Source of the DNA: Fibrobacteria bacterium
Lineage (GTDB): Bacteria > Fibrobacterota > Fibrobacteria > UBA5070
DNA length: 64,000 nucleotides
Reading direction: 5' to 3'
Assembly: GCA_020633825.1 (NCBI GenBank)
Contig: JACKCV010000003.1
Location: 241,167-305,166 of the forward strand
This document shows positions 10,247 to 64,000 of this stretch, piece by piece (the first letter of the stretch is position 1; each line of letters begins with the position of its first letter). The translations under genes were made by a program, and so were the position numbers. The notes under the pieces were generated by a model. It was not told the origin of the DNA, did not search any database, and saw only the letters and a program-made list of their open reading frames with translations.

Positions 10247-10298
10247 CTCGACTCCTGAGTGGGGCAGACGGGCGAAATTAGCAACTGAAAGAGGTAGT

Positions 10299-12055: not shown

Positions 12056-12056
12056 G

Positions 12057-17278: not shown

Positions 17279-17340
17279 TCCCCCCGGATCGCCACCTCCC
17301 CGTTTCCCTCCATCACCGTCCCGAACCGGGAGACGATTCC

Positions 17341-33082: not shown

Positions 33083-33086
33083 GACG

Positions 33087-36000
33087 ATGGACACCTCGAC
33101 GGAGACGGTTCCCGCCCAGGGGCCGTCAGGCGGGAACTGGGATGTTCTGAAGGTTCGTCTGGGACGCCAGAGGACCGAACTCGAGGAATGGCTCGCCGGA
33201 TTCGACCGACGGCGCAAGAAGGTTTTCGGGGCCGCCGAGTGGAAGCTCGACCGGACCCTCCACGTGGCCACGGAAAGCCGATGCGTGCCCCGGGATCTCA
33301 CCCAGGTGGGCGAGACCCTCCTGCTGGGGTACAACGTCCAGTTCGGGCTCAAGACCGAGACGGTCCTCTCCGACGTCTTCTCCCTCTACGCCCGGGACGA
33401 GGAAGGCGGATACCGCGAACAACCCCTGGACCTCCTCTCCGAGCCCCGCTTCCACGAGGATTTCCGCAACCTCTACCGGTACTACCGCCAATCGCAATTC
33501 GCGCGATTCGTCCGGCAGGGGAATTTCCTGTTCATGGTGTTCCGCGTCGGATCGCTCCTCGACGATCTCAAGGCCTTCAAATGGCGCATCGGCCGGGACG
33601 GGTTGGGCTACGAAGGAGACCGCGCGGTCTCGGAGATCCAGATCCCTCCCCGGCATGGATTCGAATGGACCCGAACCCGCCGAGAACACCATCGCGAAGG
33701 CAAGCATCCGCACATTTCCATCGAGGACAAGGTCTTCGTCGAGACCATCGGCGGCGATCTGACGATCAAGGTCGAGAACAACACGGAATCGGGCCGAGGC
33801 ATCCTCAGCGAACCGGTGGAGCACCGGGACCAGACCCTCGACGACGCCGAGATCCACTATGCGGTCCTGGGCGACATCGTCACGTTGCGCATCCGCCCCT
33901 TCCAGGAAAAGGATCCGCGCCACTTCCTGTATTTCTGCAAGACCAAGCAGGCGTTCCGGGTCGACTCCCTCGCCCATTCCAGCGCCCTCCTGCCCCAGCA
34001 GCACGGCCTTCTCCTCCCCGACGGATGGGCCCTGCAATCGGGCGATCTGAGACGTTTCCAGACCGTGCGTCCCGACCTGTTCTTCGACGGACGCATGGAA
34101 TCGGGCACGGGCGAGGACCACCTGTACTCCTTCCACGACCCCGCCACGGGGGAATACACCCTCCTCTCCTACCGGCTCACCGAGCAGAGGACGGAAACCC
34201 CGATCTCCTGCCACGGCTGGTGCCTCGTCCCGTCGGGCGAATTGCTGGTCTTCCGGGCCCAGAGCGAGCCCCAGTCGAGCCACGCCCTCCAACTTTGGAA
34301 GACCCCCTTCGGAGGCCAGACGGAAAAGCCCCTGGAGGCGGACCCTTGGCTGGAGAAGATCGGGAACCAGGACCTGGTGCGGTTCCTGGCCCAAGGGCAT
34401 CGCCTGCGCAACCTGATGGGCCGCGACCCGGACTTCGCCGGTCTGTTCGGCGATCTGACGCGCGAGGCCCGCAATCTCGCCGACGCCCATTTCTGGATCA
34501 AGGACGAGGAGGCCGGCGACATCGACCGGATCCTCCGGGAGATCGGGGAGACCGCCGAAGCGGCCATCGGCGAGTACGAGAAGGTCGAGCGCAGCCGGCT
34601 TGCCGCCACCTCGACCCGACAGGAATTGGAATCACGGCTCGCCCCGGACCTCGCGGAAGCCCCGCTGTTCCCGGGACTTGCCGATTGCCTGGAGAGCCTC
34701 CACCGCCTCCGCGAAGGTCGCGGACAGACCCTGGAAGCGGCGGAGATGCCCTTCGCCGATCGCGAGGCCTGCCAACTCCTGGAAGAGCGAATCTCCGCGG
34801 CGCAGGATCGGGTGGGAGCCGCCTGCACCGGCTTGCTGCTCTCCGAGAACGCCCTCGAACCCTGGCGCCAGGGATCCGTCGCGGTTTCCGCGGCCCTCCC
34901 CGGACTGCGCATGGCCCGCGAGGCGGCCGAGCTCGACGCCCGGCTCGACCTGCAGGCTCGCCAGCTCGAACTCCTCCTGGAAACCATCGGAAGCCTCAAG
35001 GAGGTCGACGCCGTCCAATCGACGGCGATTTCCGATCGCGTCTCCCAACTGCTCGCGGAACAGAACCAGGTGCGCAGCGCCCTGCGCCAGCGTCGCACCG
35101 AGTTGGGAAGACTCGAGGGACAGGCCGAATTCGCAGCCCAGGGAAGGCTGGTCGCGCAGGCCCTCGCGAGCGCGCTCGACCTCGCCGCGACCCCAGAGGA
35201 TTGCCAATCCTCGCTGGTGCGTCTGCTGGCCCGTCTGGAGGAACTCGAGGCCCGTTTCGGGGAGGTCCCGGAATTCCTGGAGAAGCTCGCCGATCTTCGC
35301 GAGGAGATGGTCGCCTCGCTCGACGCCCGACGCGTGCAACTCCTGGAGACGCGCGGCCGTCGGTGCGCCCAGGTGACCGAATCCGGGGAACGCATCCTCA
35401 AGGGGCTCGCCCAGCGCGCCGAATCCCTCGCCGACGCGGCCGCGGTCCGCTCCTTCTTCGCCTCCGACCCGCTGGTCGACAAGGTGCGCACCCTGGCCGG
35501 CCAGCTTCGTTCCCTCGGGGATGCCGCCGCCGCCGAGGAGCTCTCCGGGAAACTCCAGACCTTGCAGGAGGATTCCCTTCGCAAGGTCCGGGACCGTGCC
35601 GAACTCCTGGTGGAGGGCGGACAGGGACTCAAGCTCGGGCGCCACGTGTTCGCGATCCAGAAGACCCGCCCCGAACTGGCGGTCTTCCCCGGCCAGGATG
35701 GCCTGGAACTCCACATCTCCGGTACCGGTTTCCGTCAGCGGATCCAGGACTCCGAAGTGGACGCCCTCCGGGACGTTTGGGATCTGGAAGGAACGGGAGA
35801 ATCCCCCCGGGCCCAACGAGGGGAAGTGCTCGCCTGGCGTCTCCTCGACCTGGCCGAACGCGAGATCCCCGGAGGCTGGAAGGCCCTGTCCCGCGAGGAC
35901 GATTCCGCCCTTTCGGCGCGGCTGCGCGTCCTCATGGAGTCCTCCGCCGTGGAGGGCTGGCAGAGGGGCGTCCACGACGAGGACGCTCTGCAGATCCTGC

Positions 36001-42556: not shown

Positions 42557-43765
42557 ATGAACCAGTCCGATACGGCCTCCCTGTGGCTCCTCGTGTCCAC
42601 GGGATTCGTCCTATTCATGCAAGCGGGATTTCTCTGCCTCGAAGCGGGATCCGTGCGGCGCAAGAACAGCGTGAACGTCGCCATGAAGAACTTCGTGGTG
42701 GAGATCCTCACCACCTGCACGTTCTTCACCATCGGATACGCCATCATGTTCGGCGGCACCTGGAAAGGGATCTTCGGGGTTTCCGCTCCCGCCCTTGGCG
42801 GGATCCCGAAGGAGGAGCTCTTCCAATTCCTGTTCCAGGCGGTCTTCTGCTCCACCTCCGCCACCATCGTCTCCGGAGCGGTCGCGGAACGCCTGCGATT
42901 CCTTCCCTTCCTGCTCCAGACGGCCTTGCTCTCCGCCTTCCTCTATCCCTTGTTCGGGCATTGGGTGTGGGGGCAGGGGTGGCTCTCCTCCATGGGATAC
43001 CACGACTTCGCGGGCTCTTCCGTGGTCCACTTGATGGGCGCGGGAGCCGGTCTTTCCGGGATCGTCCTCCTGGGTCCTCGCCGGGGACGATTCGTCGACG
43101 GGAAGGTCCGCAACCTCGGGGGGAGCAATCTGATCATCGCCGCCCTGGGGACGTTCATCCTGATCGTCGGGTGGATCGGGTTCAACGGTGGAAGCGCTCC
43201 GTTCGGGATGCAGACCGCCTCCATCGTGGCCAACACCCTCCTGGCCGGCTGTTTCGCCGGACTGACCGCGATGTCCAGCACCTGGATCACCCGGGGCATC
43301 GCCGATCCCATCCTCATGATGAACGGCACCCTCGGAGGGCTGGTGGCCATCACCGCCTGCGCCGACATCGTCCCCCTGCAGGCCGCGCCTCTCCTGGGTG
43401 TGGCCGCCGGACTCGCCACCCACGGGGCCACGTGGGCCCTCGAGCGGCTCCAACTCGACGACGCCGTCGGCGCCATCCCGGTCCATGGAGCCTGCGGAAT
43501 CCTGGGAATCCTGGCCACTCCTCTCCTGGCCAGCGGGGAGACGCTCGCATCGCACCTGGCCGCTCATCCCCTGACCTCCCGACTCGACTGGTTCGGGATC
43601 CAATGCGTCGGGGTGGTGGCGTGCCTGGCCGTGTCCGTGGGAGGGGGATTCCTGGCATGGATCGCGATCGGTCGGTTCGCGCCCCTGCGGGTGAGTCCCG
43701 ACGCGGAGCAGCTCGGCATGAACTTCAGCGAGCATCGCCTCGAGGAGGAGGAGGGAACCGCATGA
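42557..43765 (+). CDS. amt: Ammonium transporter (Amt family)
   Basis: DTASLWLLVSTGFVLFMQAGFLCLEAG N-terminus; 11 TM; conserved His/Phe gate region. Confidence 0.9.
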   Translation: MNQSDTASLWLLVSTGFVLFMQAGFLCLEAGSVRRKNSVNVAMKNFVVEILTTCTFFTIGYAIMFGGTWKGIFGVSAPALGGIPKEELFQFLFQAVFCSTSATIVSGAVAERLRFLPFLLQTALLSAFLYPLFGHWVWGQGWLSSMGYHDFAGSSVVHLMGAGAGLSGIVLLGPRRGRFVDGKVRNLGGSNLIIAALGTFILIVGWIGFNGGSAPFGMQTASIVANTLLAGCFAGLTAMSSTWITRGIADPILMMNGTLGGLVAITACADIVPLQAAPLLGVAAGLATHGATWALERLQLDDAVGAIPVHGACGILGILATPLLASGETLASHLAAHPLTSRLDWFGIQCVGVVACLAVSVGGGFLAWIAIGRFAPLRVSPDAEQLGMNFSEHRLEEEEGTA

Positions 43766-44802
43766 CGGATTTCGTCGAAGGCTCCCTGGTCGGACAGGCG
43801 CGTTTGATCGCCCCCCTCGGCAGGGGTTCCATGGGAGTGGTCTGGAAGGCGCGCCACCTGGCCCTGGACATGGAGGTCGCCGTCAAGGTGCTGCGTTCCT
43901 TCGATCTCGCCGACGCCGGGAGGTTCCGGGAACGCCTGCGCCGCGAGGCCCGCCTGACCGCGCGCATCGACCATCCGGGCATCGTGAGGGTCTACGACCT
44001 GGTCGACCACCCCGAGCACCCCAGCCTGGTGATGGAGCTCGTCGACGGACCGAACTTCGACAGTTTCCTCCGCTCCCGCGGCCCGATTCCCGAGCGCACC
44101 TCCCTGATGGTCGCCTGGCACCTTTCCGCGGCCCTGGGTGCGGCCCACGAAGCCGGAATCCTGCACCGCGACATCAAGCCTTCCAACATCCTCGTCTCCT
44201 CCAAGGGCGTCCTCAAGATCAGCGATCTGGGCTTGGCCCGGCCATTGTCGGCCTCCTCGCTCACCGACCATCGCAACATCATGGGGACCCCCCTGTTCAT
44301 GGCCCCGGAACTGTTCACCCAGTCCAGCGAACCGGACGTCCGCACCGATCTCTATTCCCTCGGGGTGGTCCTCTACCAGGCCATGGCCGGAGTCCCTCCC
44401 TTCCCGGGCACCACCGCCCAGGTGATCCATGGCCATCTCCACAAGCCCCCCGATCTGTCCCCCATCCCTCCCGGCTCGCGTGACATCCTCTCGCGCCTTT
44501 TGGAGAAGGACCCCGACCGCCGCCCCTCCACCGCCTCGGAAATCCGGGAAATGGTCTGCCAGCGCATCCAGGAAATCGATGGCAAATCACCACCCCCCAC
44601 GCCCCCCGCATCCACCACCACGGAGGTCCGCATCGGCGGCTCCTCCTCCCGCCTGATGGAACGCCTCGAGCGCCACCTGGAAACCACCTCCGTCTCCTCC
44701 GGCAAACGCATCCTCCACTCCTCCGCCCGCGAGCGGATCCTCGTCACGATCCTCCTCTCGGCCCTCCTCACCCTCGCCCTCCTCGGGTGGCTCCTTTCCT
44801 GA
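43762..44802 (+). CDS. Ser/Thr protein kinase with C-terminal TM helix
   Basis: GRGSMGVVWKA...AVKVL (G-loop plus Lys), HRDIKPSNIL, DLG, APE. ATGA overlap with the amt stop. Only the last 347 aa of ORF 42583..44802 are real. Confidence 0.85.
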   Translation: MTDFVEGSLVGQARLIAPLGRGSMGVVWKARHLALDMEVAVKVLRSFDLADAGRFRERLRREARLTARIDHPGIVRVYDLVDHPEHPSLVMELVDGPNFDSFLRSRGPIPERTSLMVAWHLSAALGAAHEAGILHRDIKPSNILVSSKGVLKISDLGLARPLSASSLTDHRNIMGTPLFMAPELFTQSSEPDVRTDLYSLGVVLYQAMAGVPPFPGTTAQVIHGHLHKPPDLSPIPPGSRDILSRLLEKDPDRRPSTASEIREMVCQRIQEIDGKSPPPTPPASTTTEVRIGGSSSRLMERLERHLETTSVSSGKRILHSSARERILVTILLSALLTLALLGWLLS

Positions 44803-51579: not shown

Positions 51580-52659
51580 ATGATCAATTTCGCCGATTTC
51601 GCACTCGACCGCCGCATCGTCCCCGGCACCGCCCCCGATGGCACCCCGATCCTCTCGCTCCTGGCCAAGGCGTCGTTCATCCTCGAACCGGGGGAGATCC
51701 TCTCCAAGGAACCCCCGGTCCCGGCAGCCCTGACGGAAAACGACACCGATGTCGAATCCGACCTCGTGGCCTGGAAACCCCTGGTCGACGTCGTCGTGGT
51801 GGGACGGGCGCACGCCCCGCGGGGGAAACGCGCGCGTTTCTTCGACGCGGGAATCGTGGTCGCCGGTCGCGAGACCTCCCTGCGGGTCTTCGGCGAGCGT
51901 TCCGTCGACCTTTCGCGCGGCTCCGTGCGCTTCACCGACCCGACGCCCTTCGATGCGATGCCGCTGGACCGCAAGCTCGCCTACGGGGGGATCGATGCGG
52001 TCTCCGATCCGGAATCCGTCCACGTCTACCCCGCCAATCCCGACGGGATGGGTTACCGCATGCTCCTCCATCCCCAGAGCATGCACGGGTTCCGGCTGCC
52101 CTGCCTGGAGAACCCCTCCCATCTGCTCCAACCGGACACCCTGGTCGTGGACTCCCCCGACCGCTGGACGCGCATGCCTCCACCCCGCCACCTGGGGTGC
52201 ACCTCCCGGTCGTCCTTCCCGCGCATCGACCTCGCGGGACTGCCGCCCGACGCGGCCATGGACGCCAAGATCGCGAGCCAACTCTCCCTCGCCGCATCGC
52301 CCACCGTGGGGGCCGGCGGCGATCCTCCCCCGCCCCCGCCGCGCCGGATGGACCCCAGATTCTTCAACAGCGCGCCCGAATCCCTCCAGTTCCCGCACCT
52401 GGCGGGCACCGAGACCATCGTGCTGAAATACATGGATCCGGACCACCCCCAGATGGAGTTCGCGCTGCCCGGCGTCCAGCCCGAAGGATGGCTCGATGTC
52501 GGCGAAGGCCCGGCCAACATGCCGATGGTCCTCCAGAACGTCGAAATCCGTCCGGACGACCGGCTCGTCCACCTGGTGTGGAGGGGCTCGTGCGCGTGGG
52601 CCGGTCCCGATTCCGCCCCCGCCTTCACCCGGTTCGAACACGGACTGGTCCTGGCCTGA
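51580..52659 (+). CDS. DUF2169 domain protein (T6SS/eCIS adaptor-like), paralog 1
   Basis: VAWKPLVDVVVVGRAHAP...SLRVFGERSVD core resembles the DUF2169 signature (..KP.TDVvv.G.A......RVFGdR.W). Start at ATG 51580 (alternative 51475). Confidence 0.6.
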   Translation: MINFADFALDRRIVPGTAPDGTPILSLLAKASFILEPGEILSKEPPVPAALTENDTDVESDLVAWKPLVDVVVVGRAHAPRGKRARFFDAGIVVAGRETSLRVFGERSVDLSRGSVRFTDPTPFDAMPLDRKLAYGGIDAVSDPESVHVYPANPDGMGYRMLLHPQSMHGFRLPCLENPSHLLQPDTLVVDSPDRWTRMPPPRHLGCTSRSSFPRIDLAGLPPDAAMDAKIASQLSLAASPTVGAGGDPPPPPPRRMDPRFFNSAPESLQFPHLAGTETIVLKYMDPDHPQMEFALPGVQPEGWLDVGEGPANMPMVLQNVEIRPDDRLVHLVWRGSCAWAGPDSAPAFTRFEHGLVLA

Positions 52660-52681
52660 AATCGATCGAGGAGATCCCCCC

Positions 52682-53767
52682 ATGTGGACTTGCACGGTGC
52701 AACCAGGAACGGGACCCGAGGGTCGGAGCGTGCTTTCGGTGCTGGGGAAACGGACCTACCGGCTCCTTCCCGAAGGCGGAACCGAGGTCGACGAGGATTC
52801 CCCCATCGAGCTCCACCTGGAGCGGAAACTCTCCGGCCTGGAAGACCCCGACCGCGATCCGGTGGTTCGCGAAAGCGACCTGGTTGCCTGGAAACCCTTG
52901 ATCGACGTCGTGGTCCACGGTCCCGCCTGCAGCCCGTCCGGCAAGATCGCGCGGTTCTTCGACGCGGGCATCTCCATCTCGGGACGTTCCCGCATGGTCC
53001 GCGTCTTCGGCGACCGGAAGATCGACCTCTCCTCGGGACGGATCCGCTTCAGCGACCCCATCCCCTTCGAAACCATGCCCCTGCATTGGGGACTGGCCTA
53101 CGGAGGAACGGCCCCTTCCGCCCCGGGTGGGTTGCGTCTGGTGTACCCGCGCAATCCCGTCGGCAGAGGATTCCTCGTGGCCACTCCCTTGGAGCTGCTC
53201 CACGGGCTGGCCCTTCCCAATCTGGAGAACCCCGCCCAACCGCTCCAACCCGACGCCGTCGTCCTCAAGCGGTACGACCTATGGAAACGCATGCCGGTTC
53301 CCCTCGCCTTGGGCTGGACGTCCCCGCACTTCTCCGACCGTGTCGTGGAAGGTCCGGTTCCCGCCTCCGGCAGGATTCCCCTGCCTCCGCCCACACCGAA
53401 CGCGGCTCCGTCCTTCCTGCGCCTGGCCTCGCTGTCGGCCGGCGAGACCATCACTCTCGTGCACATGGACGCATCGAACCCGGCTTGGGAGTTCACGGTC
53501 CCGGACGACGCCCCCCGCGCCTTCCTCGATCTGGGTCAAGGTGCCATGGCCCTGGAGACGACCCTCCAGACCGTGGAGATCCATCCGGCGACGCGCCAGT
53601 TCACCATGCTGTGGCGTGGCATGCACCCCATCTCCCCGGAGGACTTCCAGGAAGTCTCCCGAATGGAGGGCTGGATGGAATCCGGACCGGCCAAGACGAT
53701 CGAACGGGAGGAGCGCAAGCCCCCCAAGCGCGCCCCTCCACCCGAAGCAACCGCACCGTCCGTCTAG
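52682..53767 (+). CDS. DUF2169 domain protein, paralog 2
   Basis: VAWKPLIDVVVHGPACSP...MVRVFGDRKIDL, same architecture as the upstream gene at roughly 45% identity by eye. ATG 52682 with GGAG 8 nt upstream. Confidence 0.6.
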   Translation: MWTCTVQPGTGPEGRSVLSVLGKRTYRLLPEGGTEVDEDSPIELHLERKLSGLEDPDRDPVVRESDLVAWKPLIDVVVHGPACSPSGKIARFFDAGISISGRSRMVRVFGDRKIDLSSGRIRFSDPIPFETMPLHWGLAYGGTAPSAPGGLRLVYPRNPVGRGFLVATPLELLHGLALPNLENPAQPLQPDAVVLKRYDLWKRMPVPLALGWTSPHFSDRVVEGPVPASGRIPLPPPTPNAAPSFLRLASLSAGETITLVHMDASNPAWEFTVPDDAPRAFLDLGQGAMALETTLQTVEIHPATRQFTMLWRGMHPISPEDFQEVSRMEGWMESGPAKTIEREERKPPKRAPPPEATAPSV

Positions 53768-53795
53768 GGCTCGGCCGGGCGCTCCGGCGAGCCGA

Positions 53796-55061
53796 TCAGG
53801 GCTTCGCGGCCTTGGGGACCCCGGGCTCGGATTCCCAGGGAAGCACATGGCCCTGCAGGGGTTCGTCGACGTATTCGTAGACGATCGCCCCCGGGGCGCG
53901 ACGCACGTTCTCGAACGTGCACTCCTCGAAGGTGGCGGCATCCTCGGGCTTGAGGGACACCGCGATCTCCTGGGTGATCTCGAGATCCTTGAAACGGCTG
54001 CGTTTGCCGTGGAATCCATCGAAGGTCATGGCCCGCACCTGGATGTCCTCGAAGACGGCGTCCTCGGCTTCTCCCGTGAGGATGAAATTCTTCGCACGGA
54101 TCCCGTGGATCCGCAGGCCCTGGTTCGATCCGCGCACGTGCAGGGTCCCTTCCTGCAATCCCTCGAAGTCGAGGTTGCGCGTGTCCTCGACGATGGCGCC
54201 GTCCTTGAAGCCCTTCGCGACGATGTCGCGCCCCCCCGAAATCGAGAAACCTTCTGCCTGACCTTCGCTCTCGAAGCGGCAATCGCGGATGTCGCCCGAG
54301 AGGTCCATTCCGCGCAGGACCCGCAATCGGGAATCGCTCATGTTCCCCTCGAAGGAGCCGAAGTCGTCCCCGTCCATTTCGCACTGGCGGATGGTGCCGG
54401 TTCCGAGGGTGCCGCGCCAGTTGTTCCCCTTGAAGGAGCATCGTTCGAACGTCGCGCCCACGATCGCCGTGGCCTTCCCCTCGAGATCCTGCCGGAAATC
54501 GTCCCAGGGTTCGCCGAAGTCGTTGTTCTCGATGCGCGAGTCGGTGAAGACGCAGTCCTCCCAGGCGGCCGCGTCGTCGCCGGGATGGTTGTCGTGGAGA
54601 TGGAAACTGTCGAATCTGTTGCGGGCCCAGGTTCCCGAGCGCCGGAACCCGATCTCGTTCCGGGAATCGAATCCGTGGAGCTCCCCTCCCTGGAACCGGT
54701 TTCCCACCCATTTTCCGCCGCGCATCAGGATGCCTCCCAACTTGCAGTTGCGGAATTCGACGTTGGTCAGCTCGGCCGCGCGGAATTCGCATCCCTCGAA
54801 CACGGCATCCTCGAAGACCACGCTGTCGAACTTCGTCCCCTCGAACACCACGTTCTGGAACTTCCATCCCTTCAGGACCAGACCGTGCCACGAACTGTCG
54901 GGGAACGTGACGCTGGCCAGGGTCTGGGGCTCGTCCCCGAACTCCCGCTGGAAGGCGGGCGCGTCGTCCAGCACCTGGTGCATCTTCTCGAATTGCAACG
55001 GACTCATGCAGGCTCCTAGAAGGAGGGACAGAAGGAAGAGCGGAAGGATCCTCGGGAGCAT
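53796..55061 (-). CDS. Pentapeptide-repeat lipoprotein
   Basis: Lipobox LLLGACMSP. Tandem A(D/N)LxF-type pentapeptides (NVVFEGTKFDSVVFEDAVFEGCEFRAAELTNVEFRNCKL...). Start overlaps the stop of the 995-aa gene (TGATG). Confidence 0.75.
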   Translation of the reverse strand: MLPRILPLFLLSLLLGACMSPLQFEKMHQVLDDAPAFQREFGDEPQTLASVTFPDSSWHGLVLKGWKFQNVVFEGTKFDSVVFEDAVFEGCEFRAAELTNVEFRNCKLGGILMRGGKWVGNRFQGGELHGFDSRNEIGFRRSGTWARNRFDSFHLHDNHPGDDAAAWEDCVFTDSRIENNDFGEPWDDFRQDLEGKATAIVGATFERCSFKGNNWRGTLGTGTIRQCEMDGDDFGSFEGNMSDSRLRVLRGMDLSGDIRDCRFESEGQAEGFSISGGRDIVAKGFKDGAIVEDTRNLDFEGLQEGTLHVRGSNQGLRIHGIRAKNFILTGEAEDAVFEDIQVRAMTFDGFHGKRSRFKDLEITQEIAVSLKPEDAATFEECTFENVRRAPGAIVYEYVDEPLQGHVLPWESEPGVPKAAKP

Positions 55062-58048
55062 CACGACTTGTGGTAGGCGTCCAGATCCGGCCGCTCGTTG
55101 GGCGTCAGGTCCCTGCGGATCCAGATCTGGGGGCAATCGTTGGCGGTGAAGCTCCCTCCGACGGCCCAGAGCAGCCAGGGCGTGTCGGTGGAATAGCCTC
55201 CCTGGCCTGAGAACTCGAAGCGGAGCCAGATCTTGGCCGGCTTCTTCTTGCGGTTGGTCGCCCAGTCCATCAGCATCTTCACATCCGCGCGGGAGGTGTC
55301 CGAAGCGCCCGCCGGCAGCCTGAAGCACGCGTTCCGGCCCGGGACGTACTCCAGATGGATCCGGGAGATGACGCCGTTTTCCGTCTTCTGCCAAAGGAGG
55401 TCCAGGCCGGCGAAGGAGAGTCCGGCGGGGAGCGGCATCGCATGGCTGTTGAAGAAGAAGCGCAGCCCCGGCGATCTGCGACGGAAGCACCTGATGGCGT
55501 CGATCGGTTCGGAGATCAGGGCCGAGAAGAGGTTGGTGTGGTAGCGATCCTCCTCGGCATCGAAGGCGCGGATGCACTCGCGATCCCAGGTCTGGAGATT
55601 CGCCCGCTGGTACCGTTGCACCTGCCACAACGGCTTGCCGGTGAATCGCCGGCGAGGCGGCACGCGGTCGTGGGTGGCGTGGGAGCGCGCCGGAGGCGGG
55701 GTCTCCTCGGGATCGCCGGCATGGAACACCTCCATGTAGTCCAGCATCACCCCCAGCCGGGGCTTGTTCTTCGGGTTGCGCGCGTACACCGAACGGATGT
55801 CCTCGACCTGTCCCGAGGCGTCGAAGCGAACCCGGGTCCAGGAAGGGGGACGACTCCCCCACTCCCCCTTGTAGTTCTTGCTCTTGAGGCCCTTGGCCCC
55901 CGGGGGAGCCGCCAGATCCCCTCGGTTCTCGCGCGGAATGGGCCCCGCCGAATCGGACACCACGAACAAGGCCTTGTCGCGGTGCGCCGCCAGGGGGAAC
56001 TGGTCGAAATGCCAACCGGTGATCCAGACCATGTCGGATCCGTCGTAGCCGGGATGATCCTCCCCCTCCTTGTCCCGTCCTCCGGTCATGGCGTACACGC
56101 CGGCCCGATGGGCGTGCCCGGAGATGGCCAGTTGGATCTTCCTGTCCCAGAACAGCTTGTACATGTGGTCCCGCTCTTCCTCGCAGGTCCCGACGTTGTA
56201 CTTGGTCACATCCGATTCGATCCCGAACAGGTGCGTCTTGGTTCCGAAACATCCCACGGTGCCGTGGGCGGAGATGGGCACGGTCTCCTTGTAGCACGCC
56301 CAGGTGTAGTGGGAGAACGTGTTCACCGGACGGCCTTGTTCCGTCGCCCAGTCCACCACGGGCAACTCCGATTCCAGGAGCGCATCGGTGGCGTGCGGGA
56401 GGTGCCCGAGGCGGTCAGCCCCTTCCTCGGTCCAGAACATCCCCTCGTCGTCCCCCCAATCCAGGCACAGGGGTTGACGCTGTCCCCACTTCACGGTCCA
56501 GGTGCGCAGGGGCGAGTACAGGAGGTAGAAGAGCTCGAGGGTGTAGGGATCGAAGTTCTGGCCGTCGAGCCAGGTCTCGTAGCTGGAGCCGAAGGCGAGG
56601 CACGCCTCGAGGATGGTGAGGTTGGAGTCGGCGGGGATGCCGCCGTTGGCCTTGGTCAGTTCCAGGGCGGGGATCCCGAGGAGATCGAACCGCGGGGAGA
56701 TCCCGTAGGGCTTGCGGTAGGAGTCGTGGTTTCCCGCCAGGACGAACACCGGTTTGTTGGATCCCTCGGCGGCGACGAATTCCGCCACCATGTTGTAGAA
56801 GCCCAGCGCGCTCGTCCCCTCCTGGTAGCACTTGTCGCGGTTGGACTTGCGGTAGGCGATTTCGCAGGCCTTCCAGATCTCCGGAAAGCGTTTTTCGTCG
56901 GTGGTGACGGAGTCGCGCCCCATCCAGCCGCGCACCTTGGCGTCGGAGGGGAGGAGATCGGCGAAGAAGTCGACCAGATCGCCTCCGATGACCACCATGT
57001 CGGTTCCTGGCTCGGCCAGCCTCCGGAAGTGTTCCCCCAGCGTCTCGACGGTGTCGACCACCATCGTGCCGATGCTGGGAACCAGGTCTTCCGGGAGGTC
57101 CCCCTTGCGCGTCTCCCAGTGGGGAATGGCCCGGATGTCCGTGTGCCGGAGCAGACGGAATTTGGTCACCAGGTGCAGGTCGGACAGGAAGCCGATGTCC
57201 GCGTGCTTCGGGGGGGCGAGGTAGAAGGGATGGTAGGTGGTGAGCGGGGTCGCGTTGGTGGGCGTCATCGTGGCCAGGTTCCAGCCGGGCAGCTGGGGGC
57301 CCTTGCGCTCCTCCTCCAGGATCCCCCGCAGGCGATCCCCCATGAACCAGCGATCCTCCTTGAACATCGAGACGTCGATCTTCGAGGTCAGGATCCTCTC
57401 CAGGGTCGCGTCCTGGCACTCCTGGCGCAAGGGTGCGTCGGGATTGCCCATCCAGTGCAGGAAGAACCTCCTGTCGGGCGCGTTCCCCCCGAGGTGTTCC
57501 AATCCCCCCGTGCGCCACTTCGGAGCGAGGCGTCGGAGGTCGAGACGGACGACGTGGACGTGGGTGTAGCGCTTCTTGTCGGCTTCCCGGTGGGCCTTCC
57601 GCGAGGGCGTCCCTTTCGCGTCCTTCTCGTTGACCGCCTCGGAATAGTGCTCCAGCACCGATTTGGCCAGGAATCCGCTGAACCCGGCGCTCTCGATCGT
57701 GATGGGCTTCTCGTCGTCGTAGCCATCGACGGCGCGCTTCTCCAGAAGCTCCACGCAATCGGGCGATTCGAACAACGGTCCCCCGACATCCGCCACCGGC
57801 ACGCATTCCTTGAGGGATCGGATGGGTGCGAATTCCGGGAAGATCCGGAGGCATCGGTCGACGTGTTCGGGCAGCAGGTCTTCCCGTCCCAGGAGGATCA
57901 GATGCAACTGCCCCTCCTCGTTCACCGAGGCCGGGGCTCCCAGGGATGGATAGAGGATCGCGGCGGGGACGCGCTGCCAGTAGGTCTTCTGCTGCCAGCT
58001 TCCCACGTTGTCCAGGAGCTTGGTCTTCGTCTTCTTCTTCCGGGGCAT
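55061..58048 (-). CDS. Large (995 aa) protein with calcineurin-like metallophosphoesterase domain
   Basis: MPP motifs VVIGGDLVDF (GDxxD), VLAGNHDS (GNHD/E), ISGHAHRAG (GHxH). Lys-rich N-terminus MPRKKKTKTK, no signal peptide. Confidence 0.7.
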   Translation of the reverse strand: MPRKKKTKTKLLDNVGSWQQKTYWQRVPAAILYPSLGAPASVNEEGQLHLILLGREDLLPEHVDRCLRIFPEFAPIRSLKECVPVADVGGPLFESPDCVELLEKRAVDGYDDEKPITIESAGFSGFLAKSVLEHYSEAVNEKDAKGTPSRKAHREADKKRYTHVHVVRLDLRRLAPKWRTGGLEHLGGNAPDRRFFLHWMGNPDAPLRQECQDATLERILTSKIDVSMFKEDRWFMGDRLRGILEEERKGPQLPGWNLATMTPTNATPLTTYHPFYLAPPKHADIGFLSDLHLVTKFRLLRHTDIRAIPHWETRKGDLPEDLVPSIGTMVVDTVETLGEHFRRLAEPGTDMVVIGGDLVDFFADLLPSDAKVRGWMGRDSVTTDEKRFPEIWKACEIAYRKSNRDKCYQEGTSALGFYNMVAEFVAAEGSNKPVFVLAGNHDSYRKPYGISPRFDLLGIPALELTKANGGIPADSNLTILEACLAFGSSYETWLDGQNFDPYTLELFYLLYSPLRTWTVKWGQRQPLCLDWGDDEGMFWTEEGADRLGHLPHATDALLESELPVVDWATEQGRPVNTFSHYTWACYKETVPISAHGTVGCFGTKTHLFGIESDVTKYNVGTCEEERDHMYKLFWDRKIQLAISGHAHRAGVYAMTGGRDKEGEDHPGYDGSDMVWITGWHFDQFPLAAHRDKALFVVSDSAGPIPRENRGDLAAPPGAKGLKSKNYKGEWGSRPPSWTRVRFDASGQVEDIRSVYARNPKNKPRLGVMLDYMEVFHAGDPEETPPPARSHATHDRVPPRRRFTGKPLWQVQRYQRANLQTWDRECIRAFDAEEDRYHTNLFSALISEPIDAIRCFRRRSPGLRFFFNSHAMPLPAGLSFAGLDLLWQKTENGVISRIHLEYVPGRNACFRLPAGASDTSRADVKMLMDWATNRKKKPAKIWLRFEFSGQGGYSTDTPWLLWAVGGSFTANDCPQIWIRRDLTPNERPDLDAYHKS

Positions 58049-58055
58049 GCGGGCC

Positions 58056-58997
58056 TCAGATCAGTTCGGCGACATCGGTGAGGTCGACCGTGTAGATGCC
58101 GGGGATGGAAACCTCGACCACGACGACCCCGTCCTGCGGGATGGTCTCCGTGGCGGCGGCTCCGTCGGGCGCGGTGATGGGAATGCTCTTCCCCTCGAAG
58201 GGACCGGCGAAATTCTCGCGGCTCCAGAACCGGAGGACCATCTTCTGCCGGATGGCGATGCTCGGCGCGTCGGCCTCGACTCCCAGGCATCCCACCGTGG
58301 CGTACACCATGGGGTTGCGGTAGGTCATCTGGAGCCGCTGGGCTTCCTCGGCCGACGGGATGCCCGCCGACCGGGGACCGAAGTCGAGTCGGAACTTGGC
58401 CTCGGCGACTCCGTTCTGGACCGTGCAACGCCCCTTCTGGACCCGGTGCACGCGTCCCTTCTCGTCCTGCTCGCACAGGGTCCACACGACGTGCCGCCGC
58501 GGGGGGATGTTCGCCACCTTGGCCTGGATCCGGTATTCCATCCCGTCGTCGAGAAGTTCGGGGACGGTGTCCTCGGTGGCGGACAGGATCTTCGCTTCGG
58601 TGATCCGCGGGGGTGTCTCGACACGCAGAACCGCCGATCTCGCCGACAGTCCGTGATCGGGGAGTTCGACCTCGAACGAGAGGGGCCCCTCGATGTCCGC
58701 GGGGACCAGGAAGGTCTGTCGGTGCATTCCCTGCACGATGCGGCCCTGGGATTTGCCGACCGTCGATCCCCCGCCGTCGCGGAAGGTGAACCGGATGTCG
58801 GACTGGTCCCGGACGAATTGCGTCTGGACGGTGAAGGTGACCGGTTTTCCCGGATGGGCCAACGCCGAATCCCAGAAAACCGAAGCGATCCGGGAATCGA
58901 GGGAAATTTCCAAGGTCTGGCCGGTTTTTCCCGAGAATTTGGTATTCACTGGAAGCGATCCTGGTCGGTGGAGGGCGGGAGGATGTCGGAATCGCAC
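58056..58997 (-). CDS. Hypothetical protein (313 aa), first gene of the MPP operon
   Basis: Normal amino-acid composition; ends 8 nt before the MPP gene start. GTG start at 58997 or the internal GTG at about 58946. Confidence 0.45.
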   Translation of the reverse strand: MRFRHPPALHRPGSLPVNTKFSGKTGQTLEISLDSRIASVFWDSALAHPGKPVTFTVQTQFVRDQSDIRFTFRDGGGSTVGKSQGRIVQGMHRQTFLVPADIEGPLSFEVELPDHGLSARSAVLRVETPPRITEAKILSATEDTVPELLDDGMEYRIQAKVANIPPRRHVVWTLCEQDEKGRVHRVQKGRCTVQNGVAEAKFRLDFGPRSAGIPSAEEAQRLQMTYRNPMVYATVGCLGVEADAPSIAIRQKMVLRFWSRENFAGPFEGKSIPITAPDGAAATETIPQDGVVVVEVSIPGIYTVDLTDVAELI

Positions 58998-59089
58998 GAC
59001 GTCGGTCGGAATCCGGTACCTGGAAACCTACTTTCTCCCACGTTCCCTTTCCGCGCAGAACATGGTCGGCGGTCCTTGGAGGAGTCAGG

Positions 59090-60064
59090 ATGGCAGGAAA
59101 ACCAGCAGCGAGGCTCGGCGACCCCACCGCCCACGGAGGTGCGATCACCGGTCCGGGCATTCCCACCGTGATGATCGGGAAGATGCCCGCGGCGACCATG
59201 GGGGACATGCATGTCTGTCCGATGGTGACTCCCGGCACTCCTCCCATCCCCCACGTCGGCGGCCCCATCACCCTGGGCTCCACCGGCGTGCTCATCGGCA
59301 AGAAACCCGCCGCCCGCATGGGCGACATGGCGGTGTGCGTCGGACCTCCGTCGTCGGTCATCATGGGCTGCCCCACCGTGATGATCGGGGAGGCCGGAAG
59401 CGGATCGCAGGCCGGAAGCGCGGGATCGGCTGCCGCGGCGGCTTCGGCATCCGTGAAGAGTCCCAAGACCCTCAGCCCGATCGAACCTCCTCCCCGGCGA
59501 GAGGCCGAAGTCCTGGACATCAGCGACATCGTCGTGATCGTCAAGGACTCCTCCGGCAAACCCTTCGCCGGTGCCGATTTCCTCCTGGAGGATCCCGACG
59601 GCGTCCGCCACCTGGTCGCGACCGGAAGCGACGGATCGTTCCGCCGCACGGGCCCCTGGAAGGCGGGGAAGGGCTTCAAGGCCAATTTCCGTTCGCTCTC
59701 CGAAGCCAAGTTCGGGAAGACGGAACTGGCCGACGGCGAGGAGACCCCGCTGCAGGCCAAGGCCGACGGGTTCGCGGCCGGCGCGGACGCGTCCTTCCGT
59801 CTGACCGTGCAATCCCTGTCGGGAAGGACCGACCTCGCGTCCATCCCCGCCAACGTCCAAGGCGACAAGCTCGAAGGACGCTGGACCTACCGGCAGGAGC
59901 AGATGATCGAGATCCTCGGCCGGGAGAACGTCCCGCTCGACACCGACATCGAGATCGGCCTGACCGTCGTCTGCGGGTTCGAAGCCTGCGTGGCCCCGAC
60001 TCCCTGCGTGGTCAAGGTCGCTCCTCCCGAGCCGGTCGAGGTCCGCAAGATCCGGTCGGCCTGA
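59090..60064 (+). CDS. PAAR-domain protein with ~220-aa C-terminal extension
   Basis: KPAARLGDPTAHGGAI...GKMPAATMGDMHVCP...GKKPAARMGDMAVC, three PAAR motifs. The C-terminal 220 aa have no recognisable motif. Confidence 0.8.
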   Translation: MAGKPAARLGDPTAHGGAITGPGIPTVMIGKMPAATMGDMHVCPMVTPGTPPIPHVGGPITLGSTGVLIGKKPAARMGDMAVCVGPPSSVIMGCPTVMIGEAGSGSQAGSAGSAAAAASASVKSPKTLSPIEPPPRREAEVLDISDIVVIVKDSSGKPFAGADFLLEDPDGVRHLVATGSDGSFRRTGPWKAGKGFKANFRSLSEAKFGKTELADGEETPLQAKADGFAAGADASFRLTVQSLSGRTDLASIPANVQGDKLEGRWTYRQEQMIEILGRENVPLDTDIEIGLTVVCGFEACVAPTPCVVKVAPPEPVEVRKIRSA

Positions 60065-60220: not shown

Positions 60221-63200
60221 GTGCACCCCATCACATTCCTCCTCACGGCACTCCTTCCGTCCCTCCCGGCCTTTTCCGCTCTCGAGATCGAGGAGGATTC
60301 GCCCTCCCGTTGGGCGGCCCGCTTCTCCCTTGGCCAATGGACCTGCGACTCCTCCTCGAACGAACGGCGGATCGACTCGAGATCCCATCCCACCCATGCT
60401 CAACCTGGTGGGCTGGTGGTCCCCGTCGCCGCGGCCACGCTGGCCCTGCCTCCCCGGGGAAATTGGAAGATCCGGGTGCGCAGGGACTCGATCATCCTCG
60501 TTCCCGGATCGCAATGGCAGCGCTTGCGTGGATTCCAGGGGGATTTCGGGGACCCGGTCCAAGTTCCGTCACGCGAGATCACCCCATGGACGGAGGTCGC
60601 GACCGCGCAAGGAAAGGAGTTGCGACTCTCGATCCCGTGGGCGGTTCCCGGAAGCATGGGCCTGGATCTCGCCACCTTCCTCTTCGTGGAGGTGGAATTC
60701 GACGGAACGGGAACGGCTCCCCTGGCCCCCTCGGTGAAACGCCGCGTGGAAAACCCCTCGGGGGCCGCGGGCTTCGGAGTTTCGGGAACGATCGGTGGAG
60801 GAAGGACCTCCGGCTCCGAGGCCTCTCTCCTGCCGGAGGGGAACCAGGTGCTGGTCGTGGAGGTCACGACACCGGAGCCGGGAGACATCAGCCACGATGG
60901 AACGGTTCGGCTTACCGGGGCCCGGATTCGATCCATCCTGGGATCCTTCAACGGGGTGGACTTTTCACGGGTGGCGGTGGCGGCGGGATTCTCCGGCCCG
61001 ATACCCCTGGAAATGGGGCCCGAACTTCCCCTCGCAGGCCCTCGTCCCATCCCCATCCGTCGCATCGATCGAAACCGCGACGGCGCCTTCGACGACGAGG
61101 ATGCCATCGAATTCCATGCCCACGGCTCCACGACCTGGACGGACGACTCCCTTCTCTCTCCCGGTGTGTTCTCGCTGTCCGTCCATCCCTGGGATCGGAC
61201 GCGACGTTATCTGGTCCGGTTGGACGCCGCCGAGCCATCCCCGGAGATGGGAGTCGGATCGATACCCGTGGCACCGGTCCCCCAGGCATCGACCCGACGT
61301 CCGGTCTGGGCGGGGCGGCACAAGCTGTTGCACGAGCAAGCCTTCAAGCTGGAATCCATGGACCTGGAATCGGGAGTTTCCTGGATGTGGCATTGGGTGG
61401 ATTCCAAACCACTCGGCCCGGCGGACCTGCGCCACCCGGCAAGCACCGATCTGCCAGGACTCGCCGACTCCATCGGCCGGGTCGTCGTGCGCACCGTCTC
61501 GACGCCCCCCTCCGACGACGCCCCCATCACCGCCAACGGACGTGCATCGTCCTTCGAGGCTTCCCGGGAATTCCGATCCCTCTGGCACGTCGGCGGCCTG
61601 CGCGCGAAGGACAATTCCTGGACGTGGCACCACCGAGCCGGAGAGACAGGGTTCGAAAGCTACACCATCCACTACGCATTCCGCCCTTCGCCCGGATCCG
61701 AGATCGCCTTCCCGGCCCCCGGGCCCGGGGCATTCTCCATGAAGATCGGCGGAGCCTCCTCCGCAGATTCGTTTCTGGTCACCGAAGACGGGATCGGACG
61801 CCGGGTGGTCGGGCTGCACGAAGGCTTCCTGGTGGATTCCGCCCGGATGCGCAATACCTGGTACCATCCGCTCGGGAGACTCGCCCAGGCCAAGGTCTCC
61901 AAATGGACTCCCCCGACGGGGAAGCGGGTGCTCGCTCCTTCCCGCTTCCGCGAAGCCCTGCACGTCGAAATGCTCGTGGTCTCACCGGATTCGTTCCTGG
62001 ACCTCGCCACCACCTATGCGGAATTCCGCTCGGATCCCCGCCGGATCCGGCCCATGGAGACCATGGTGGTCCGGGCCGACGACGTGTGGGAACTCCTGGG
62101 AGGCGGCAGCCAGGACCCGCTCGCGCTCCGGGATCTGTTCCGGCTGGCTCGGGCCCGTTGGGGCACGTCCCACGCGCTTCTGCTCGGCGGAGGGCACTTC
62201 GACCCTCGAGGACTGTCGGGAGCCCCTCCCGCGCCCTTGCCGGTGTGGGAGGACGGGAACGTCTCGACGGATGCCGTCCTCTCCTACCTCGACCCGGGGG
62301 AGATCGCACGCGATCGGAGGAAGACCTCCGACATCGCACTCGGCCGCATTCCCGCCCGTTCCCGCAAGGAGGTCACCGCATGGCTTGACAAGATCCGTCG
62401 CTGGGAGGATCCGGAGATCGCGGTGGGCGGCCCTTGGCGGAACACCTTCCTGGCCACGGCCGACGACCAGGAGCGTCCCACCAACGGAGGAAGCACGGAG
62501 TCCTCGGAGCACACCCGGCATACGGAGGAGATCCTGCGGGCTGCCGCCGGCACGCGCGCCTGGCTGCAATCGAAGAAGGTCTACGAGGTCGAGTATCCGA
62601 TGAACGCCATCCGGGAAAAGCCGGACGCGCAGCGCGCCTTGCTCGATCAACTCAACCGGGGGGTCGCGGCCATGATCTACCTGGGACATGGCGGATACGA
62701 TGTTCTTTCCGATGAACGCCTCCTCGACACGCGCTCCGCGCTCCTGGGTCTGAACAACACGGCCTTTCCTTTCCTGTTCTTCGCGGGCTCCTGCACCGTC
62801 GGTCGCAACGACCTCGGACGTCAACGCGGACTGTCGGAATCCCTGGTCACCGCCGAGGGCAAGGGAGCTGTCGCAGCCGTCTCGGGGACCCGCGCGACCT
62901 TTTCCGAGGGGAATGTCCTGTTCGGGCAAGCGTTCTGGAGGTACGCTCTGCGATCCACGCCGACCGGAGGCCCCAGGACGCTGGGGGAGGCCTTCCAGGA
63001 CGCCCTGAACAACTCCGCGAGCGACGTCCTCTATTCCAACAACGCCATGTACAACCTCCTGGGCGACCCGGGCATGATCCCGTTTCCGGCGGGGAACCCG
63101 CTGGACCTCCGGACTCCCCTCGACACGTTGGCCGCATTGGATGTCCGCGTCCTCTCCGGCCACACCCGCGGACAGGTGCGATTGGACCTCCGGACCAGAC

Positions 63201-64000
63201 CCATCCCTCGATTCTCCACCTACACCATCGGATCCACGCCCCATGTCATCCCCTACACGCTCCCGGGAAGATCCATCGTCTCCCTGAGTGCCCAGGGCCG
63301 CGACGGCAAATACGAGGCTCGTCTGCTCACCCCGGCCCGAATCCCCTTCGGGGATACCGTGGAACTCCACGTGTATGCCTGGGATCCCCGGACGTTGAGG
63401 GACAGCGCCGTGATGGTTTCGAACGTGATCCTCGCCGGTGTGGGAGGCCGGGCTCCGAACGATCACGAGGGCCCTTCGATCCGCATCCTTCCCTGCGACT
63501 CCTCCTGGTCCGGGGGAATCCCTTTCGGGAAGGCCGCGGAAATTCCGGTGCCGTTCTGCCTGAGCATCGTCATGGAAGACTCCTCCGGAATCAGCGTTTC
63601 GGATGATCCCGACGATGGCGTACTTCTTTCCGTACCCGGATCGATTCAACCCTGGCACCCGGCCGGGATCGAGCAAGGAGGAAATTTCTCCCGGGCAGTC
63701 ACGCAATTCTCCCTCGACCCTCGCACCTTCAAACCTGGGCGAACCTACCCATTGAGGGTCTTCGCCCGGGATCTCATGGGGAACGCTTCCTCGGCTTCCC
63801 TGGAACTGCACACCCGCGCTCCCGGGGAGATCGGTCTCTACGAGGTCTTCAACCGGCCCAATCCGGTGAAGGGGGACCTCACCACATTCCATTTCAAGCT
63901 GCTCGCGGAAAGCGATTCCAACGGAATCGTTCCCCAGACCCTCCAAGCCTCCATCCGGATCCACACATTGTCGGGCAAGCTCGTGAGAACCCTGCGGACC
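60221..64000 (+). CDS. Partial (3' end beyond window) large secreted peptidase C25 family protein (gingipain/PorU-like) with T9SS C-terminal sorting domain
   Basis: Not in the ORF track. Frame with codon starts congruent to 2 mod 3 is open from at least 60077 to the window end, with good GC3. GTG 60221 gives signal HPITFLLTALLPSLPAFSA. C25-like region EMLVVSPDSFLDLATTYAEFR...ALLLGGGHFDP...IYLGHGGYDV...FLFFAGSCTVG. Final 60 aa NRPNPVKGDLTTFHFKLL...ASIRIHTLSGKLVRTL match the T9SS type-A CTD. Confidence 0.75.
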   Translation, partial: MHPITFLLTALLPSLPAFSALEIEEDSPSRWAARFSLGQWTCDSSSNERRIDSRSHPTHAQPGGLVVPVAAATLALPPRGNWKIRVRRDSIILVPGSQWQRLRGFQGDFGDPVQVPSREITPWTEVATAQGKELRLSIPWAVPGSMGLDLATFLFVEVEFDGTGTAPLAPSVKRRVENPSGAAGFGVSGTIGGGRTSGSEASLLPEGNQVLVVEVTTPEPGDISHDGTVRLTGARIRSILGSFNGVDFSRVAVAAGFSGPIPLEMGPELPLAGPRPIPIRRIDRNRDGAFDDEDAIEFHAHGSTTWTDDSLLSPGVFSLSVHPWDRTRRYLVRLDAAEPSPEMGVGSIPVAPVPQASTRRPVWAGRHKLLHEQAFKLESMDLESGVSWMWHWVDSKPLGPADLRHPASTDLPGLADSIGRVVVRTVSTPPSDDAPITANGRASSFEASREFRSLWHVGGLRAKDNSWTWHHRAGETGFESYTIHYAFRPSPGSEIAFPAPGPGAFSMKIGGASSADSFLVTEDGIGRRVVGLHEGFLVDSARMRNTWYHPLGRLAQAKVSKWTPPTGKRVLAPSRFREALHVEMLVVSPDSFLDLATTYAEFRSDPRRIRPMETMVVRADDVWELLGGGSQDPLALRDLFRLARARWGTSHALLLGGGHFDPRGLSGAPPAPLPVWEDGNVSTDAVLSYLDPGEIARDRRKTSDIALGRIPARSRKEVTAWLDKIRRWEDPEIAVGGPWRNTFLATADDQERPTNGGSTESSEHTRHTEEILRAAAGTRAWLQSKKVYEVEYPMNAIREKPDAQRALLDQLNRGVAAMIYLGHGGYDVLSDERLLDTRSALLGLNNTAFPFLFFAGSCTVGRNDLGRQRGLSESLVTAEGKGAVAAVSGTRATFSEGNVLFGQAFWRYALRSTPTGGPRTLGEAFQDALNNSASDVLYSNNAMYNLLGDPGMIPFPAGNPLDLRTPLDTLAALDVRVLSGHTRGQVRLDLRTRPIPRFSTYTIGSTPHVIPYTLPGRSIVSLSAQGRDGKYEARLLTPARIPFGDTVELHVYAWDPRTLRDSAVMVSNVILAGVGGRAPNDHEGPSIRILPCDSSWSGGIPFGKAAEIPVPFCLSIVMEDSSGISVSDDPDDGVLLSVPGSIQPWHPAGIEQGGNFSRAVTQFSLDPRTFKPGRTYPLRVFARDLMGNASSASLELHTRAPGEIGLYEVFNRPNPVKGDLTTFHFKLLAESDSNGIVPQTLQASIRIHTLSGKLVRTLRT

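Follow-up and report, generated by a model that had tools for sequence, protein, structure and literature searches.

The closest described counterparts of the locus reported here are the Tvp systems of the T6SS (type VI secretion system), in which proteins of the DUF2169 family have been assigned a chaperone role (PMC11883445, PMC13373197). Classes I to III of these systems were defined by Monlezun et al. (2026, PMC13373197): TvpA is the DUF2169 protein, TvpB a pentapeptide-repeat protein that acts as a cytoplasmic chaperone, TvpC a DUF3540 or DUF6484 protein that mimics VgrG by means of an OB-fold together with a beta-prism, and TvpD a PRK06147 protein. DUF2169 genes co-occur with those for VgrG and DUF4150/PIPY proteins in a ratio of about 1:1 and are rarely found near true PAAR genes (Sachar et al. 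2025, PMC11883445), and their listed hosts are Pseudomonadota, Acidobacteriota, Myxococcota, Planctomycetota, and Thermodesulfobacteriota (PMC13373197). Here we describe a six-gene module in a 64,000-nucleotide stretch of DNA, hereafter the window, from a Fibrobacteria bacterium (GenBank assembly GCA_020633825.1; contig JACKCV010000003.1, positions 241,167 to 305,166). It encodes two tandem DUF2169 proteins (DUF2169_A and DUF2169_B), a PAAR spike-tip protein, a large metallophosphoesterase (MPP), a pentapeptide-repeat lipoprotein (PRP), and a protein here called HYP (Table 1). The module is real, intact, and conserved, and we interpret it, with a probability of about 0.65, as an orphan T6SS spike-tip and cargo module of the type seen in the Fibrobacteres-Chlorobi-Bacteroidetes (FCB) group, with the core genes and vgrG not nearby.

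Genes of the window (G+C, 65%) were called from codon-position GC, and their products were scanned against Pfam. The two DUF2169 genes, which are 22 bp apart, lie on the forward strand and are followed by a convergent HYP-MPP-PRP operon on the reverse strand, from which the forward-strand PAAR gene diverges. Within the operon, the end of HYP is separated from MPP by 7 bp, and the ATG of PRP shares one base with the stop codon of MPP (TGATG). This arrangement and the presence of DUF2169, PAAR, pentapeptide-repeat, and 995-aa metallophosphoesterase genes had been proposed in a preliminary description of the window, and hidden Markov model (HMM) scans bear both out. DUF2169_A and DUF2169_B match PF09937 over the full length of the profile (E = 1.8e-53 and 182.2 bits, and E = 1.4e-45 and 156.3 bits, respectively; cutoff, 25 bits), PAAR matches PF05488 (E = 4.6e-21; 75.2 bits; cutoff, 27), MPP matches PF00149 (31.3 bits; cutoff, 21.5), and PRP matches PF13599 (56.7 bits; cutoff, 38), PF00805 (39; cutoff, 20.2), and PF13576 (32.9; cutoff, 27). 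The gene that the same description left as hypothetical does belong to the three-gene operon, but it is more than that label conveyed, being itself a conserved component of T6SS clusters (HYP; see below).

The principal evidence for a T6SS connection comes from the loci in which homologues of these proteins are found. MPP homologues are rare, an index of 5.8 billion proteins yielding 18 of them, and their distribution is patchy, with members in Fibrobacterota, Ignavibacteriales, Cytophagia, Gemmatimonadota, Myxococcota, Desulfobacterota, and gammaproteobacterial metagenome-assembled genomes (MAGs). Their contexts were collected through contig look-ups, a scan of GTDB representative genomes (22 loci), and a local tblastn map; the locus scan used a trimmed alignment of the MPP homologues, the full 18-sequence alignment being too diverse. 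The compared contigs carry locus labels of the form L0xx, L001 being the contig with the window genes. VgrG, PAAR, DUF2169, or TssB/C is encoded within 10 kb of MPP in 14 of the 24 informative loci, and HYP alone is near MPP in five further ones; in the genome scan, HYP shares a locus with MPP in at least 10 of 22 cases. As the preliminary description had anticipated, MPP homologues occur beside VgrG, PAAR, or DUF2169 genes elsewhere (L006, L008, L019, L024, and L035), and in L026 they do so within a full T6SS cluster. All six families recur together in L006, L009, L012, L018, and L024, which argues that the set is more than a chance assemblage. Gene orders include VgrG-SLFN-DUF2169-MPP-PRP-HYP-DUF2169-PAAR in L006 and ClpV...PAAR-MPP-PRP-HYP-VgrG-DUF2169-DUF2169 in L024, a Fibrobacteria MAG for which Pfam confirmed VgrG (3e-69) and both DUF2169 genes. 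L012 has the same six genes as the window in the same arrangement, with proteins 57 to 70% identical and likewise without vgrG, and related gene sets are present in L016 and L019, the latter with vgrG. In pairwise BLAST comparisons, the homology of all six window proteins to their counterparts extends over the whole or the greater part of each protein.

A second line of evidence is provided by main T6SS clusters of the FCB type. L026, from an Ignavibacteriales MAG, has its genes arranged as PAAR-...-DcrB-HYP-MPP-PRP-ClpV-TssB-TssC-TssD-VgrG-TssE-TssF. Clusters L037 to L040 comprise a PAAR gene (346 to 367 aa), two variable genes, a DcrB-like gene, HYP, and at least one variable gene, after which come the core genes for a split ClpV, TssB (PF05591), TssC (PF17541), TssD (PF17642), VgrG, and TssE. 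In L037 the position 3' of HYP is occupied by FG-GAP and Zn-dependent phospholipase C genes, in L038 to L040 by unrelated genes, and in L026 by the MPP-PRP pair, and this variation in content between clusters suggests that it is a cargo slot. The five clusters otherwise have a fixed gene order, in which TssF follows TssE; ClpV was called as two genes in L037 to L040 (about 486 and 365 aa), and the ClpV matches in L026 also fall into two pieces. We take PF17541 and PF17642 to be markers of the Bacteroidota-type (iii) T6SS.

HYP was present in the T6SS cluster in all five of the sampled contexts (L026 and L037 to L040). It matches no Pfam entry and no specific NCBIfam family, and a PDB sequence search returned nothing meaningful. 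Its structural model consists of three macroglobulin/Ig-like beta-sandwich domains, and the protein is homologous (paralogous) to the C-terminal extension of PAAR. Searching with a profile of 15 HYP sequences gave at least 354 matching proteins of about 290 to 300 aa, with E values down to 1e-98, many of which belong to MAGs of Zixibacteria, Latescibacteria, and other FCB lineages. HYP is an accessory gene conserved in FCB-type T6SS clusters, and its product may serve as a cargo adaptor or as a spike-dock subunit. The Fibrobacteria chromosome OY970309.1 (L032) has three HYP paralogues (8228-9814, 14028-14924, and 17091-17963) around one MPP-PRP pair, with nearly identical first 110 or so residues and divergent C-terminal parts, a pattern that resembles the diversification of polymorphic toxins or adaptors. 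In one of the three, HYP is fused with an SLT lytic transglycosylase domain (3e-12), which suggests that effectors can be carried by the HYP module.

The PAAR protein consists of a canonical PAAR domain (residues 1 to 100) that a Gly/Ala/Ser linker joins to a C-terminal extension of the beta-sandwich type, and the protein contains the three PAAR motifs KPAARLGD, MPAATMGD, and KPAARMGD; a CarboxypepD_reg-like stretch was matched as well. Residues H15, H41, C43, H55, C83, and C94 do not vary among 11 orthologues and, by likeness to PDB code 4JIV, would form the metal site of the tip. A match to PF05488, but none to DUF4150 at E <= 0.01, was obtained for the window protein and for each of its 10 orthologues. 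The protein is 37 to 40% identical to PAAR genes of Zixibacteria T6SS clusters. In sequence, the closest solved relative of the PAAR domain (59090-59390) is the tip SalCis10 of an extracellular contractile injection system (eCIS) of Salmonella enterica subsp. salamae (PDB code 9rce), and this match is well ahead of those to T6SS PAAR structures.

Both DUF2169 proteins are single-domain polypeptides of 359 to 361 aa with no fused pentapeptide-repeat domain, and the predicted ATG of DUF2169_A at 51580 agrees with an independent 359-aa gene call in L001. They are 41% identical to each other. DUF2169_A is 54% identical to one DUF2169 protein of L009 (L009_D2169b) and 70% identical to its L012 orthologue, and DUF2169_B is 60% identical to the second L012 protein (L012_D2169x) and 39% identical to the other L009 protein (L009_D2169a). 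By these values the two represent separate conserved paralogue lineages. NCBIfam has no specific family for them, and a PDB sequence search with DUF2169_A gave nothing meaningful. We predict that DUF2169_A is a TvpA-like chaperone of the PAAR tip. In L012, L009, L016, and L018, the DUF2169 pair is preceded by genes for proteins of 1650 to 1730 aa and of 705 to 741 aa (L012, 17856-20894; L009, 11946-18788). The larger ones (1654 and 1732 aa in L012 and L009) match nothing in Pfam or NCBIfam, and the smaller ones (705 and 741 aa) have a SagB-like glucosaminidase domain (NF052642; 1e-28). These large genes were considered as possible vgrG genes and rejected as such; they are absent from the window and could encode an additional effector or a spike component of an unusual kind.

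MPP, which is flanked in the window by HYP, PAAR, and DUF2169 genes, is probably a T6SS cargo toxin with predicted phosphodiesterase activity. Its five signature motifs (DxH, GDxxD, GNH[DE], H, and GHxH) are invariant or nearly so in the 18 homologues and correspond to D290/H292, G356-D357...D360, G439-N440-H441-D442, H580, and G644-H645-x-H647; the catalytic site is thus intact. In the AlphaFold2 model (pLDDT, 73; pTM, 0.83) the catalytic domain adopts the alpha/beta sandwich of calcineurin-like metallophosphoesterases, a fold like that of Icc, GpdQ, PAP, and ASMase, with the glycerophosphodiesterase GpdQ among the closest structures (20.0). MPP thereby resembles Icc/Rv0805, Lmo2642, GpdQ, and acid-sphingomyelinase-like phosphodiesterases in its catalytic fold and full set of dimetal-site motifs, but it is only 14 to 16% identical to them in sequence and three to four times larger. 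The N terminus is hydrophilic and has no signal peptide. The additional size includes a C-terminal domain and a family-specific N-terminal domain (residues 25 to 282), for which a search of 1.84 billion representatives recovered MPP relatives only; a widely shared trafficking domain of the MIX or FIX kind was accordingly rejected for this region. A PDB sequence search with MPP found nothing meaningful, NCBIfam offered no specific family, and our literature searches on T6SS metallophosphoesterase effectors found nothing relevant; the effector family has not been described previously. An antiphage defense role was dropped, as PADLOC had no match for MPP or PRP. Peptidoglycan-binding proteins or domains adjoin MPP homologues in L008, L010, L030, and L034 to L036, and one is found on the PAAR protein of L006, and this places the likely site of action in the envelope.

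PRP starts with a lipoprotein signal with a lipobox (MLPRILPLFLLSLLLGAC), of which LLLGAC|M is retained as LFLGAC|M in the L012 orthologue (57% identical). The pentapeptide matches are limited to residues 53 to 130, and the remainder is degenerate. About 17 of 27 PRP homologues have a signal peptide or lipobox, often with Cys followed by Met. Of the 22 genome loci, about 17 have a PRP gene that adjoins MPP. The gene occurs in tandem arrays of two or three copies beside a single MPP (L004/L023, L018, and L025) and is paired with MPP in L015, L021, L023, L025, and L028, where DUF2169 and PAAR are missing. Its export, its coupling to MPP, its co-occurrence with MPP without DUF2169 or PAAR, and its tandem arrays together suggest that PRP is a periplasmic immunity protein for MPP. 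In the literature that we searched, we found neither a metallophosphoesterase effector class nor a pentapeptide beta-helix lipoprotein acting in immunity; the putative effector-immunity pair and the HYP family are undescribed, and the pairing of DUF2169 with PAAR is unusual.

We envisage that the PAAR protein would cap a VgrG trimer encoded elsewhere in the genome, where a T6SS core would also be expected, and that its beta-sandwich extension and the stand-alone paralogue HYP would form a cargo-carrying dock. The two DUF2169 proteins, as TvpA-like chaperones, may shield the PAAR tip and keep it assembly competent in the cytoplasm. MPP, having no signal peptide, would be loaded as the cargo effector and, once fired, may function as a metal-dependent phosphodiesterase whose likeliest target is a phosphodiester of the envelope or one otherwise accessible from the periplasm. 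PRP, translationally coupled to MPP, would be exported to the periplasm of the producer and there neutralize MPP delivered by sister cells. We tentatively propose, at somewhat less than even odds, that the module exemplifies a fourth, FCB-lineage kind of DUF2169-assisted spike, combining two TvpA paralogues, a true PAAR, a dock made of the macroglobulin-like extension and HYP, an Icc/GpdQ-like phosphodiesterase toxin of about 1,000 aa directed at an envelope phosphodiester, and a periplasmic pentapeptide beta-helix lipoprotein conferring immunity; dock, toxin class, and immunity fold would all be new to the literature. In its general composition the locus is like orphan or auxiliary T6SS effector modules, which join a spike tip, chaperone or adaptor genes, a large signal-less enzyme, and an adjacent exported protein and lie among housekeeping genes away from the core cluster; it is unlike them in having no vgrG in the island. 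Another cargo assembly for comparison is the subtype iii complex BtpeA-BtaeB-BtapC on VgrG of B. fragilis (PDB codes 9jg8 and 9jdh; Li et al. 2025, cited in PMC13402684). Our proteins have no sequence homology to BtaeB, BtapC, or Ate3, the fold match is generic for macroglobulin/Ig-like sandwiches, its tip is a DUF4280 protein and not a PAAR, and DUF2169 is no component of the Bacteroidota complexes that have been described.

Several observations weigh against reading the module as a T6SS spike-tip and cargo unit. In Pfam scans, the about 40 genes of the 64-kb window included none for a sheath, tube, baseplate, VgrG, or ClpV, the first three of which had already been noted as missing from view. 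Five MPP loci (L010, L021, L023, L030, and L036) have no T6SS-linked gene within 10 kb. About 10 of the 27 PRP homologues, chiefly from Gemmatimonadota and deltaproteobacterial loci, have no signal peptide (L008, L009, L030, L033, L034, and L004a among them) and therefore fit a uniformly periplasmic immunity role poorly. A DUF2169-PAAR chaperone-client pair is without experimental precedent, given that DUF2169 rarely neighbors true PAAR genes (PMC11883445). Finally, DUF2169 genes are absent from the vicinity of MPP in Ignavibacteriales, Cytophagia, and other groups; DUF2169 is thus not needed for MPP delivery in general and, by its distribution, is a lineage-specific addition to the tip and not an MPP requirement. 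The lack of vgrG and core genes in 64 kb would also be explained if the module were a stranded relic of a T6SS island in a genome with no functional T6SS left, its genes decaying or retained for the protection that the lipoprotein gives against the MPP of neighbors, and the DUF2169 pair, which in relatives follows vgrG (L024) or large genes (L012 and L009), here follows the housekeeping genes MltD and SppA. We regard this as unlikely, since all six open reading frames (ORFs) are intact, with catalytic residues, PAAR motifs, and lipobox preserved, and L012 keeps its corresponding set in the same vgrG-less layout at 57 to 70% identity. Furthermore, T6SS-positive bacteria commonly have orphan vgrG/PAAR-effector islands that lie far away from the core cluster. 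The MPP loci with no T6SS-linked gene in view, together with the frequent peptidoglycan hydrolase or peptidoglycan-binding genes next to MPP, might instead indicate a T6SS-independent envelope enzyme system, such as a phosphodiesterase with a lipoprotein partner in cell wall or lipid turnover, in which MPP and PRP (and perhaps HYP) are merely located near T6SS genes. This is very unlikely in view of the split topology of a signal-less MPP and a partner with a signal, which fits a toxin and its immunity protein and not a one-compartment complex; the rarity and patchiness of the family across phyla (18 proteins), typical of mobile toxins; the placement of the cassette in the variable slot of the T6SS cluster (L026 versus L037 to L040); and the five-of-five occurrence of HYP as a T6SS-cluster gene.

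Two further readings concern the kind of machine served. The module shares with Tvp systems the location of DUF2169 (TvpA) genes beside a PAAR-superfamily tip gene, with DUF2169 directly 3' of vgrG in the Fibrobacterota relatives L024 and L006, and with class III (synteny type C) a pentapeptide-repeat gene in the same locus. This gene content, namely, DUF2169, a pentapeptide protein, a protein of about 300 aa, and a PAAR-like gene, superficially matches class III (PMC13373197). PRP could then serve as the "seat belt" TvpB, and HYP could mimic VgrG in the manner of TvpC; both would be cytoplasmic chaperones that assemble a VgrG-PAAR spike with DUF2169, while MPP would be an effector with its immunity gene elsewhere or with none; the signal-less PRP homologues are consistent with this. 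The differences are extensive, and we consider such an arrangement quite improbable. The conserved lipoprotein signal should take PRP out of the cytoplasm; PRP tracks MPP and not DUF2169, as the loci with the pair alone show, and forms tandem arrays; and its features do not fit a cytoplasmic TvpB chaperone of class III. Moreover, the tip is a canonical PAAR by family, motifs, and conserved His/Cys residues and not a DUF4150/PIPY protein, two stand-alone DUF2169 paralogues accompany one PAAR gene where 1:1 is the rule, neither has the TvpAB-type fusion to a pentapeptide domain, TvpD is absent, no module protein matches DUF3540, DUF6484, or DUF4150 in Pfam at E <= 0.01, and the three beta-sandwiches of the HYP model differ from the OB-fold and beta-prism of TvpC. 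Fibrobacterota, the phylum of the host, does not appear in the published list for DUF2169, and the linkage of this family to vgrG is not seen in the window, although it is present in L024, L006, and L019. Thus, the preliminary view that DUF2169, pentapeptide-repeat, and PAAR genes form a recurrent trio holds only superficially. That view also left undecided whether the island belongs to a T6SS-iii or to an eCIS. A cargo and tip module of an Afp/PVC-like eCIS would be compatible with the lack of T6SS genes in the window and with the best PDB match of the PAAR domain, SalCis10 (1.9e-21, versus 1.3e-7 for the B. fragilis T6SS Paar), which is the sole pointer to an eCIS among our tests. Against it, the window has no Afp-type sheath, tube, or baseplate genes; orthologues of PAAR (37 to 47% identity) and HYP reside in clusters with ClpV, TssB (PF05591), TssC (PF17541), TssD (PF17642), VgrG, and TssE/F; the published evidence on DUF2169 all concerns T6SS (PMC11883445, PMC13373197); and a periplasmic immunity lipoprotein fits contact-dependent intoxication of sister cells. 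We deem an eCIS highly improbable, and ClpV and TssB/C in the clusters with homologues favor an orphan T6SS module, which may be of subtype iii, the subtype that PF17541 and PF17642 mark.

Table 1. Genes of the six-gene module, with positions in the window
Gene	Positions	Strand	Product and family
DUF2169_A	51580-52659	+	359 aa; PF09937
DUF2169_B	52682-53767	+	361 aa; PF09937
PRP (pentapeptide-repeat lipoprotein)	53796-55061	-	421 aa; PF13599
MPP (metallophosphoesterase)	55061-58048	-	995 aa; PF00149
HYP	58056-58949	-	297 aa (ORF open to 58997); no Pfam match; locus tag H6686_08505
PAAR spike-tip protein	59090-60064	+	324 aa; PF05488

The remaining 30 or so genes of the window have only housekeeping and envelope functions according to Pfam, and proteins with Fib_succ_major domains among them are consistent with an origin in Fibrobacterota. 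The module is flanked upstream by MltD-like and SppA housekeeping genes and downstream, from 60221 onward, by PorU-like C25 peptidases. The latter neighbor had been taken for a substrate of the type IX secretion system (T9SS), an identification that we refine: two C25-family peptidases of about 1,250 aa lie in tandem, one at 60221-64000 and continuing past the window and the other, a paralogue, at L001 1-3430. For the copy of 1,253 aa (L001 3872-7633, the window gene), the best NCBIfam match is the T9SS sortase PorU (NF033707; 4.5e-86), at 289 bits under a curated cutoff of 420, and its C terminus resembles a T9SS sorting domain. Elsewhere in the window, an apparent operon at 30333-37961 (+) encodes proteins of 195 and 720 aa with no Pfam match and a 1,624-aa ATPase with DUF3686, DUF7902, and AAA ATPase domains; PADLOC had no match for this operon. 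A 1,125-aa ORF at 9957-13334 (+) has no Pfam match, atypical codon-position GC, and overlapping reverse-strand ORFs, and gene calls across this interval are uncertain. Ser/Thr protein kinase genes are present at 13982-15148 and 43762-44802, and such genes also adjoin the PAAR end of several FCB-type T6SS clusters (L037 1-1144, L040 3826-5610, and L008 15103-16821), which could be a coincidence or a PpkA-like regulatory link. A promoter and terminator scan was uninformative.

Our literature searches on T6SS in Fibrobacterota found nothing relevant, and the module would extend the biology of T6SS cargo loading to the barely studied phyla Fibrobacterota, Zixibacteria, and Ignavibacteriales. It would be a specific counterexample to the rule, as reported, that DUF2169 proteins serve only DUF4150 tips, and it contributes three new candidate parts, namely, a family of metallophosphoesterase effectors, a family of pentapeptide-repeat lipoproteins for immunity, and HYP, which is widespread. 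If MPP hydrolyzes a conserved envelope phosphodiester, this would constitute a new antibacterial mode of action, and if PRP inhibits MPP, the pentapeptide beta-helix would have a new use beyond DNA mimicry.

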